A stretch of 4,041 nucleotides of DNA from a virus (Duplodnaviria; Heunggongvirae; Uroviricota; Caudoviricetes). The notes beneath the pieces were generated by a model. It ran no database searches and was not told the origin of the DNA. It saw nothing but the letters and a program-made list of their open reading frames with translations. Every line of letters begins with the position of its first letter. The stretch's first letter is position 1. The position numbers and the translations under genes were made by a program. Shown piece after piece: positions 2,839 through 3,325 of this stretch. The stretch spans positions 1 to 4,041 of IMG/VR virus record IMGVR_UViG_2663762839_000013. The stretch is one strand, 5' to 3'.

Positions 2839-2842
2839 GAAT

Positions 2843-2847
2843 CCTCC
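2843..2847 (-). promoter_or_regulatory. Shine-Dalgarno sequence of nanS-p
   Basis: Minus-strand GGAGG (revcomp of CCTCC at 2843-2847), then spacer ATTC, then ATG at 2838-2836. Confidence 0.7.
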
Positions 2848-3031
2848 CGGCCGGGAGAATATTGTGAGTAAAATGAGGAGCGGGCTGAAGTCCGGAAGTT
2901 ACAGGACAATGGCAGAAGAGAGACAACAGCCCGCAATACGAAAAAGGCCGCGCTATTGCGCAGAGTGATTACTGTCGGATATTATTCGCCAGCTGAAATA
3001 TTACTTCACGTTTTGTTGTTTATTCCTTGCC

Positions 3032-3059
3032 GCCCGCGTCTCCCTGCGCGGGCTTTTTT
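3032..3059 (+). terminator. Intrinsic terminator (plus-strand orientation)
   Basis: 7-bp GC stem GCCCGCG (3032-3038) pairs with CGCGGGC (3047-3053) around an 8-nt loop, immediately followed by TTTTTT (3054-3059). Confidence 0.5.
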
Positions 3060-3065
3060 GTCCAT

Positions 3066-3090
3066 AAGAAAGCCCCTCCGGAGAGGGGCT
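3066..3090 (-). terminator. Hairpin with downstream U-rich tract (minus-strand orientation); forms a convergent pair with the 3032-3059 terminator
   Basis: Perfect 8-bp stem AGCCCCTC / GAGGGGCT (3071-3090) with a 4-nt loop. On the minus strand it is followed by UUCUUAU (revcomp of 3066-3072). Confidence 0.35.
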
Positions 3091-3192
3091 GGAGAGTGGC
3101 GCTATGTGCCATTGCATGGTGCCGGGTGCCTCCCGGTGAATTCAGTACCAGCACCTGAATCCGCGATTATCCCATATACCTACTCGCTGATT

Positions 3193-3210
3193 GCCCCTCC
3201 GCACAGGGGG
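3193..3210. repeat. Second copy of the GCCCCTCCG-initiated hairpin motif (first copy at 3072-3090)
   Basis: GCCCCTCCG-CACA-GGGGG here versus GCCCCTCCG-GAGA-GGGGCT at 3072-3090; both can form short GC hairpins and share a 9-nt core. Confidence 0.3.
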
Positions 3211-3286
3211 ATTCACCATGCCAGTTTCTTTTAACAAACTCCCCGCAAAACAGACAACAGTCAACCGCCTGAATTGTGAGACATTT

Positions 3287-3310
3287 AAAAAAAAGCCCGC
3301 AAAAGCGAGC
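3287..3310 (-). terminator. Intrinsic terminator downstream of the tRNA-Arg gene
   Basis: Minus-strand GCTCGC-TTTT-GCGGGC (6-bp stem with one G-U pair) followed by T8 (revcomp of the A-run at 3287-3294). Lies 15 nt after the tRNA 3' end. Confidence 0.55.
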
Positions 3311-3325
3311 CAGGGAAAATAAGTG

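Follow-up and report, generated by a model that had tools for sequence, protein, structure and literature searches.

Convergent pairs of small RNAs (sRNAs) are located at the moron insertion site of lambdoid prophages, downstream of pR′ (Tree et al. 2014; PMC4104026). In the Sakai strain such pairs lie between the moron coding sequence and a conserved phage ORF in Sp3, 4, 5, 9, 10, 11, 15 and 17 (PMC4104026), and a review that counts at least eight Sakai phages with such a dyad, located between late promoter and lysis genes, calls the reason for the arrangement unclear (PMC7873438). The Sp4 pair comprises EcOnc05 (+, ~222 nt) and EcOnc08/EcOnc21 (−, ~271 nt), which are only 24 nt apart (Table S2 in PMC4104026).

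One partner of the dyad is a member of the STnc100 family. Copies of STnc100 include EcOnc05 (Sakai Sp4), EcOnc06 (Sp17) and EcOnc27, the last being the same as sRNA103 (Stx2 phage Sp5/933W). In EDL933 there are 11 annotated copies, of which STnc100_4 has been verified by northern blotting (PMC5331693). For the Stx2-phage copy EcOnc27/sRNA103 the reported effect is an overexpression phenotype only (PMC7873438), and a machine-learning study from 2025 lists STnc100/EcOnc27 variants downstream of stx2 among the features predictive of HUS (PMC12711010). PasD1 and PasD2 of EPEC are related to STnc100 in structure only (Zhu et al. 2026). IpeX of the K-12 prophage DLP12 was considered as a characterised member of the family and set aside, the DLP12 region being without an STnc100 match.

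The convergent partner varies. EcOnc08/21/42 of Sakai has a homologue in EPEC E2348/69, 'E2348C_1409.E2348C_1408.IGR', flagged as such by the authors of a RIL-seq study (PMC8550237). Its targets include the 5′ UTRs of cfa and dppA together with tir, and a shared target motif GGCA(A/G)GG is present in cfa, dppA, tir and emrA (PMC8550237). The same slot and orientation can be taken by AsxR or AgvB (RF02703/RF02702), short Hfq-binding RNAs (51–60 nt) that are convergent with STnc100, with the 3′ ends abutting.

The window analysed here is a 4,041-nt stretch of DNA from a virus of the Caudoviricetes (IMG/VR record IMGVR_UViG_2663762839_000013, positions 1 to 4,041). From the list of open reading frames the late genes are on the minus strand, and run in the order tRNA-Arg fragment, spacer, nanS-p, DUF1378 and DUF826 ORFs, and the start of a holin gene. 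Related annotated records have the same order, i.e. Q, tRNAs (with or without stx), spacer, esterase, holin and lysozyme. Q and pR′ are absent from the window; in the related loci Q lies upstream. A first-pass annotation, made from the sequence without database searches, had placed the spacer between a tRNA and nanS-p. Sequence of tRNA-Arg is indeed present there, but merely as a 3′ fragment (~3326–3389) whose Rfam match (27.5 bits, model positions 9–63) is below the gathering score of 29. ARAGORN found no tRNA in the window because from ~3389 the DNA becomes a mosaic of unrelated core-gene fragments, e.g. crr. The contiguous arrangement of these pieces was found in no complete E. coli genome, and the right end of the window is chimeric, truncating the tRNA-Arg fragment.

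The spacer between the tRNA fragment and nanS-p is very probably a feature that is already known, an sRNA dyad like that of Sakai Sp4. It is 99.2% identical to the argO1–ECs_1088 spacer of Sp4, and two sRNA genes, both known and both Hfq-binding, take up essentially all of it. The features are itemized in Table 1.

Table 1. Features of the spacer and its surroundings, in window coordinates
Feature	Position	Strand	Details
nanS-p, SASA-family sialate O-acetylesterase, 641 aa	913..2838	−	ORF and annotated homologues; downstream late gene
Spacer, 487 bp	3325→2839		between argO-type tRNA and nanS-p
Convergent sRNA gene, Sakai EcOnc08/21/42, EPEC 'E2348C_1409.E2348C_1408.IGR'	2879..3060	+	5′ end from EPEC RNA-seq estimate
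Terminator-like late-sense hairpin with U-run, inside the plus-strand sRNA gene	2939..2963	−	2963→2948, then CCUUUUU
Putative seed CCUUGCC	3025..3031	+	directly 5′ of terminator; complementary to RIL-seq target motif
Intrinsic terminator of plus-strand sRNA	3032..3059	+	stem 3032–3053, 8 pairs, 7 G-C; U6 (TTTTTT) 3054–3059
STnc100-family sRNA gene, equivalent to Sakai Sp4 EcOnc05	3060..3278	−	Rfam RF02076; predicted 5′ end at 3278
Intrinsic terminator of STnc100	3060..3090	−	stem 3090→3071, 8 pairs, then UUCUUAU; tail UUCUUAUGGAC
P1, closing helix of STnc100 core	3114..3221	−	GCAUGGUG (3221→3214) pairs with CACCAUGC (3121→3114)
P5 hairpin CCGGG-AGGCA-CCCGG (small hairpin of the first-pass annotation)	3122..3136	−	within 22-nt core, nearly invariant
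P4 hairpin	3138..3162	−	loop 3147–3152 makes pseudoknot; outer helix 99% paired
Pseudoknot 5′ strand AUCAGC	3186..3191	−	pairs with P4 loop 3147–3152 (GCUGGU)
SL1 of STnc100 (second GCCCCTCCG hairpin of the first-pass annotation)	3195..3210	−	C3210:G3195, 3209:3196, 3208:3197, 3206:3199
Intrinsic-terminator-like site directly after tRNA	3286..3311	−	hairpin 3311→3294, then U8
tRNA-Arg 3′ fragment, argO-type	3326..3389	−	Rfam tRNA match 3389→3337; aligns to argO1 of Sakai Sp4

The minus strand of the window matches the complete STnc100 model (RF02076, positions 1–206 of 206) from 3250 to 3060, with 139.2 bits compared with a gathering score of 47 (E = 8e-32). The hairpins at 3193–3210, 3122–3136 and 3066–3090 all belong to this one RNA. 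The first-pass annotation had treated the region as a non-coding leader carrying independent hairpins, and this description does not hold, since three of its four hairpins are helices of a single STnc100 sRNA gene. STnc100 is found at the equivalent place in five related phages and prophages (138–159 bits), and also in Sakai Sp4 and Sp5. The layout of the late region is common to FORC_069, phi296, an Stx2a phage, PhiR5_1, Nil3, Sakai Sp4 and Sp5, in all of which STnc100 follows Q, tRNAs or a moron, precedes the lysis genes and has the same strand as these. A 221-nt stretch of STnc100 is present in 2861 of 5426 complete E. coli genomes, at 1–12 places per genome.

The Sp4 copy, EcOnc05, is virtually identical to that of the window; helices, position, strand and the possession of its own terminator are the same, and nothing of substance is different. 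The window copy is 13 nt shorter than that of Sp5, from which it also differs in its central variable hairpin and in the sequence of its terminator. The conserved block of STnc100 begins at 3278; measured from there, the U-tract ends after 215 nt in both the window and Sp4, and after 228 nt in Sp5. Northern blotting gave ~222 nt for the Sp4 RNA, which also has an Hfq-CRAC peak, and ~235/247 nt for the Sp5 copy (PMC4104026); a predicted 5′ start near 3277 is consistent with these sizes. The published coordinates are offset from NC_002695.2 by ~137 nt at Sp5 and by 0 at Sp4, and the mapping was therefore verified by probe sequences rather than coordinates. The EcOnc05 northern probe is an exact match to the plus strand of the window at 3158–3192, and therefore detects the minus-strand RNA. 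The Sakai EcOnc05 Hfq peak maps onto the minus strand at 3189→3081. A sigma-70 scan of 2839–3325 returned no promoter site. A −10-like hexamer, TTAAAT, can be read by eye at 3288→3283 for STnc100.

On the opposite strand, the first-pass annotation had taken the plus-strand terminator to imply an unannotated transcript ending at about 3059. This is borne out by the Sakai data, in which the EcOnc08 Hfq peak maps to 2986–3057 of the plus strand and that of EcOnc21 to 2895–2980. The EcOnc08/21/42 northern probe corresponds exactly to the minus strand at 2952–2986, and therefore detects the plus-strand RNA. The EPEC prophage PP6 is 99.2% identical to window 2839–3206 and the loci align base for base, so that the EPEC sRNA (1444797–1444978, ~182 nt) maps to 2879–3060. 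The window shares with EcOnc08/21/42 and the EPEC RNA the same sequence, the antisense orientation, a Rho-independent terminator at the mapped 3′ end, and the CCUUGCC seed complementary to the target motif. The 5′ end is uncertain, and the size estimates disagree, being ~271 nt for Sakai and ~182 nt for EPEC. A further −10-like hexamer, TAAAAT (2869–2874), was noted by eye; it lies 5 nt before the 5′ end derived from EPEC, in a spacer where the sigma-70 scan has no consensus site. No Rfam family matches the region of the plus-strand RNA, which is present in 1116 of 5426 complete E. coli genomes.

The position of the plus-strand RNA corresponds to that of AsxR and AgvB. It ends at ~3059 and STnc100 at ~3060–3064, so that the two 3′ ends abut as in the AsxR/AgvB pairs. 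It is longer (~180 nt) and its sequence is different. Membership of these families was examined and rejected; RF02702 and RF02703 have no match in the window at an E-value up to 1, and the block TTGCCCGAACCCAYTCGGGC, from the ~42-nt conserved 3′ region of AsxR/AgvB, is absent from five related phage and prophage loci (L001–L005) that share the sequence of the window's slot. In Sakai Sp5, where STnc100 and AsxR converge with a gap of 1 nt, AsxR was detected, providing a positive control. The plus-strand RNA of the window is a positional analogue of AsxR/AgvB, not a member. The Stx2a phage (L003) carries the window-type partner instead of AsxR.

The structural elements described in the first-pass annotation, four hairpins and a repeated 9-mer, are all present and exceed chance expectation. 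A pattern scan of 2839–3325 finds five terminator-like sites (four distinct), compared with 0.7 ± 0.8 in dinucleotide-preserving shuffles. The convergent terminators are likewise as described, the plus-strand stem (3032–3053) with its T6 facing the minus-strand stem (3090→3071) with UUCUUAU, at a separation of about 10–17 bp. The 9-mer GCCCCTCCG occurs exactly twice (3072 and 3193) against an expectation of 0.03, each time in a G+C-rich hairpin, and the two copies form part of a 17-nt direct repeat of 88% identity. On the RNA strand the repeat reads CGGAGGGGC, and comprises the 3′ arm of SL1 and of the STnc100 terminator alike. The repeat is a trait of this STnc100 subtype only, because terminators in other genera have unrelated sequences; there SL1 is kept and the terminator sequence differs. 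The hairpins at 3122–3136 and 3193–3210 are conserved helices of the Rfam STnc100 model and both occur in the minimum-free-energy fold. The folding energies of individual sequences do not reach significance (z = −1.3 and −1.6). Thermodynamic stability was therefore dropped as evidence, and the case rests upon homology, conservation and covariation.

The core of STnc100 (3223→3111) is a multi-helix, pseudoknotted domain. Relatives were gathered by scanning one genome per species with a 22-nt core, giving 110 stretches in many genera of the Enterobacterales, and a covariance model of the core recovered 131 copies, which form the alignment used to analyse covariation. In this alignment 87.6% of cells are paired, compared with 77% when shuffled and ~45% with slid partners, and 18 of 25 pairs have changes on both sides. 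The closing helix P1 has both-side changes in six of its eight pairs and is present in the minimum-free-energy fold. SL1 includes a conserved C·A mismatch (3207/3198), and compensatory changes are found in four of its five pairs among 127 distinct sequences. All four pairs of the outer helix of P4 have changed on both sides. The invariant stretches are GGUGAAU, the SL1 loop GCGG, CGCG and the 22-mer CACCGGGAGGCACCCGGCACCA. The relatives were gathered with the 22-mer that contains P5, so the invariance of this hairpin provides no independent evidence.

The strand 3191–3186, immediately 3′ of SL1, pairs with the loop of P4 (3152–3147) to form the pseudoknot. The control was run on the covariance-model alignment using restricted windows, wide ones having been uninformative. 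The longest helix then averages 6.16 bp, compared with 4.44 ± 0.10 when partners are permuted, and in 1000 permutations the former value was never reached. Counting helices of 5 bp or more, 78 distinct ones make the pairing. The pseudoknot is absent from both the consensus structure line of cmscan and the 2026 Pas-sRNA preprint. The data support a core that is both covarying and pseudoknotted.

A convergent pair of Hfq-binding sRNA genes is in all likelihood the best explanation of the spacer, the evidence for expression, Hfq binding and 3′ ends coming from loci that are nearly identical to it. The two genes would fill the spacer with their Rho-independent terminators facing each other. On the minus strand, in the sense of the late operon, an STnc100-family RNA of ~190–215 nt would end at 3090→3071 plus UUCUUAU, and on the plus strand an EcOnc08/21-family RNA of ~180 nt would run from ~2879 to 3060, with its CCUUGCC seed beside the terminator. 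In the lysogen each RNA would probably be transcribed from its own promoter and stop at its own terminator, and each may then, with Hfq, target core and virulence mRNAs in trans.

The conservation of STnc100 invites a further reading, that its core is a structured RNA binding a protein or ligand, or acting on transcription in cis, and so is more than a base-pairing sRNA that uses Hfq. We regard this as rather unlikely. It is suggested because such conservation and covariation is typical of RNAs of these kinds. The domain is sometimes found in tandem arrays, and is often directly upstream of cargo ORFs, e.g. those of KdgM-family porins. If true, the dyad would comprise a structured sensor or effector RNA and a swappable convergent partner (AsxR, AgvB or EcOnc08).

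In a rival reading STnc100 would be primarily a cis-acting leader resembling a riboswitch or attenuator, whose folded domain governs its own terminator and hence read-through into nanS-p or other cargo genes downstream, the sRNA being a terminated by-product. A covarying, pseudoknotted core with long invariant stretches in many genera would be expected of such an element. Moreover, a terminator follows within 130 nt in 65 of 120 members, others are directly upstream of ORFs, and in this subtype the identical 9-mer in the 3′ arms of SL1 and the terminator makes mutually exclusive pairings possible. However, an antiterminator switch based upon the shared 9-mer was tried and rejected; among 67 family members with a terminator the complementarity between the domain and the 5′ arm of the terminator is 5.87 compared with 5.72 ± 0.09 (18 of 300 permutations at least as high, not significant), and maps to no consistent site. 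Nor do the downstream genes fall into a single functional class that might hint at a riboswitch ligand. They are heterogeneous (KdgM porin, DUF1317, a TolA-C-like protein and unknowns), which speaks against one common ligand or pathway, and the PasD RNAs, which are related, base-pair in trans with numerous mRNAs. We therefore consider a cis-acting leader improbable.

Lambda-type Q antitermination acts on the late operon at pR′–tR′. The window resembles the lambda system in that the late promoter and the late genes are separated by sense-strand intrinsic terminators, which polymerase modified by Q would need to disregard. It differs in that the terminators belong to separate genes (tRNA and sRNA) and are not the pR′-proximal tR′, which in phage Nil3 is annotated further upstream. 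The first-pass annotation had proposed that late transcripts must read through these structures to reach nanS-p. Three terminator-like sites on the sense strand do lie between the tRNA and nanS-p, and the proposal fits the known Q control of the late region, with which nanS-p is strongly induced (PMC10462455, PMC8065619). After induction, Q-modified polymerase from pR′ would ignore 3311→3294, 3090→3071 and 2963→2948, and carry transcription on to nanS-p and the lysis genes. A secondary role in Q-dependent read-through to nanS-p is plausible.

These three sites and the Q control are also what favours a purely passive leader, whose hairpins would be only terminators, silencing nanS-p and the lysis genes in the lysogen until overridden by Q. 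As the whole story this is very unlikely. SL1 and P5 are helices of a conserved multi-helix domain, not terminators, and the plus-strand terminator has no action on late transcripts. Furthermore, RNAs from near-identical loci accumulate, bind Hfq and pair with targets, and discrete Hfq-bound RNAs have already been reported for Sakai Sp4 in the uninduced lysogen. A passive role is compatible with the pair of sRNA genes as a secondary function.

That the spacer encodes small proteins is highly improbable. Plus-strand 'hypothetical protein' ORFs have been called in related records by PGAP and PHANOTATE, one PGAP pseudo-CDS and three PHANOTATE ORFs overlapping the homologous spacer, and mechanical ORFs of 43–92 aa are present. 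However, the PGAP call is marked as an incomplete pseudogene, and the ORFs cross the terminators and, in antisense, the conserved RNA helices, in which the variation takes the form of compensatory base-pair change, pointing to selection on RNA structure. One STnc100 copy of EDL933 has high ribosome coverage, but in most of the copies it is low (PMC5331693). The further suggestion of the first-pass annotation, that the repeated hairpins could be REP-like elements, is scarcely credible, as is any other kind of dispersed palindromic repeat, for although GCCCCTCCG lies twice in G+C-rich intergenic hairpins of the kind seen in REP/BIME elements, no REP family is among the Rfam matches of the window at an E-value up to 1, both copies are 3′ arms (SL1 and terminator) of one RNA with a larger covarying fold, other genera keep SL1 with a different terminator sequence, and the STnc100 stretch lies in a prophage late region in every record inspected.

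The one element for which we found no prior description in the sources consulted is that STnc100 has a covarying, pseudoknotted core and occurs widely as what looks like a leader of cargo genes. For the spacer itself the value is mostly one of annotation, in that it should be labelled as two sRNA genes, rather than as a leader or as "hypothetical protein" ORFs. The dyad architecture is recurrent in the prophages of EHEC and EPEC, and the covarying pseudoknotted core provides a concrete, mutable structure with which to probe what STnc100 does.

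The dyad consists of STnc100, the minus-strand sRNA gene in the spacer between tRNA-Arg and nanS-p, and the plus-strand sRNA convergent with it. In prophage PP6 of EPEC E2348/69 (L009:2050–2300) the 5′ part of STnc100, as far as its hairpin SL1, has been lost to an ISEc13 insertion. The convergent partner sRNA is intact, and is the same RNA as that detected by RIL-seq; the partner therefore needs no intact STnc100. Downstream of stx2B the identity of the partner varies among Stx2a phages. In Stx2_14040 it is EcOnc08-type, as in the window, whereas in Sakai Sp5 it is the anti-sRNA AsxR. 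For Sp4, the coordinates in Table S2 of Tree et al. (2014) agree with NC_002695.2. Those for Sp5 fall ~137 nt below the positions in that record: AsxR is listed at 1268494–1268542 and actually lies at 1268629–1268681. The EcOnc sRNAs should therefore be mapped onto the current record by sequence and not by coordinate.

The gene of the partner sRNA also contains a hairpin on the strand sense to nanS-p (see table), ~100 nt before that gene begins. In every phage aligned the hairpin is unchanged, or almost so.

Beyond the other end of nanS-p, directly past its stop codon, there is a second convergent sRNA-like unit (796–910, plus strand). The slot just past nanS-p is the known site of PasA and PasC (EcOnc51/52 homologues). 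The window unit and the EPEC PasC region align at both the TTGACA box and the terminator, but their bodies are unlike.

Features of the partner sRNA gene and of the unit following nanS-p
Feature	Position	Strand	Location
Hairpin then U-run, putative terminator	2939–2963	− (sense)	Inside plus-strand sRNA gene
TTGACA box	796–801	+	sRNA-like unit 796–910
Terminator, stem 881–903 then T7	881–910	+	sRNA-like unit 796–910

The right end of the window (3389–4041) is a mosaic of short pieces of unrelated E. coli core genes, including crr (3653–3917, 99% identity), and the junction at its left edge truncates tRNA-Arg. The pieces are present in every genome, spread over 3–5 separate places and contiguous in none. 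The contig carrying this mosaic looks chimeric or misassembled.

One STnc100 subtype has a different SL1 (GAAUGCGGCUCAGCGCACGCG) with the 22-nt conserved core unchanged. It is found at L011, L016 and L031, which were included in the Rfam scan, and at L017, L022, L039, L041, L058, L059, L091 and L099, which were outside it. The subtype copies score 50–64 bits with our own covariance model; the Rfam scan gave no STnc100 match at the gathering threshold in L011, L016 or L031. The STnc100 family appears to be broader than the Rfam model.

In Enterobacter genomes L024 and L100, 3–5 STnc100-type domains lie in tandem, alternating with isrI (RF01392) and adjoining a tRNA gene. At L037, L042, L051, L071, L076, L077, L084 and L104 (mostly Klebsiella, Raoultella and Citrobacter) a gene for a KdgM-family porin of 233 aa (Pfam PF06178, E = 9e-76) follows ~80–150 nt downstream of the core, and at other loci the core lies ahead of DUF1317, a TolA-C-like lipoprotein or small ORFs of no assigned kind. 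These positions suggest that the STnc100 core is often the leader of cargo genes.
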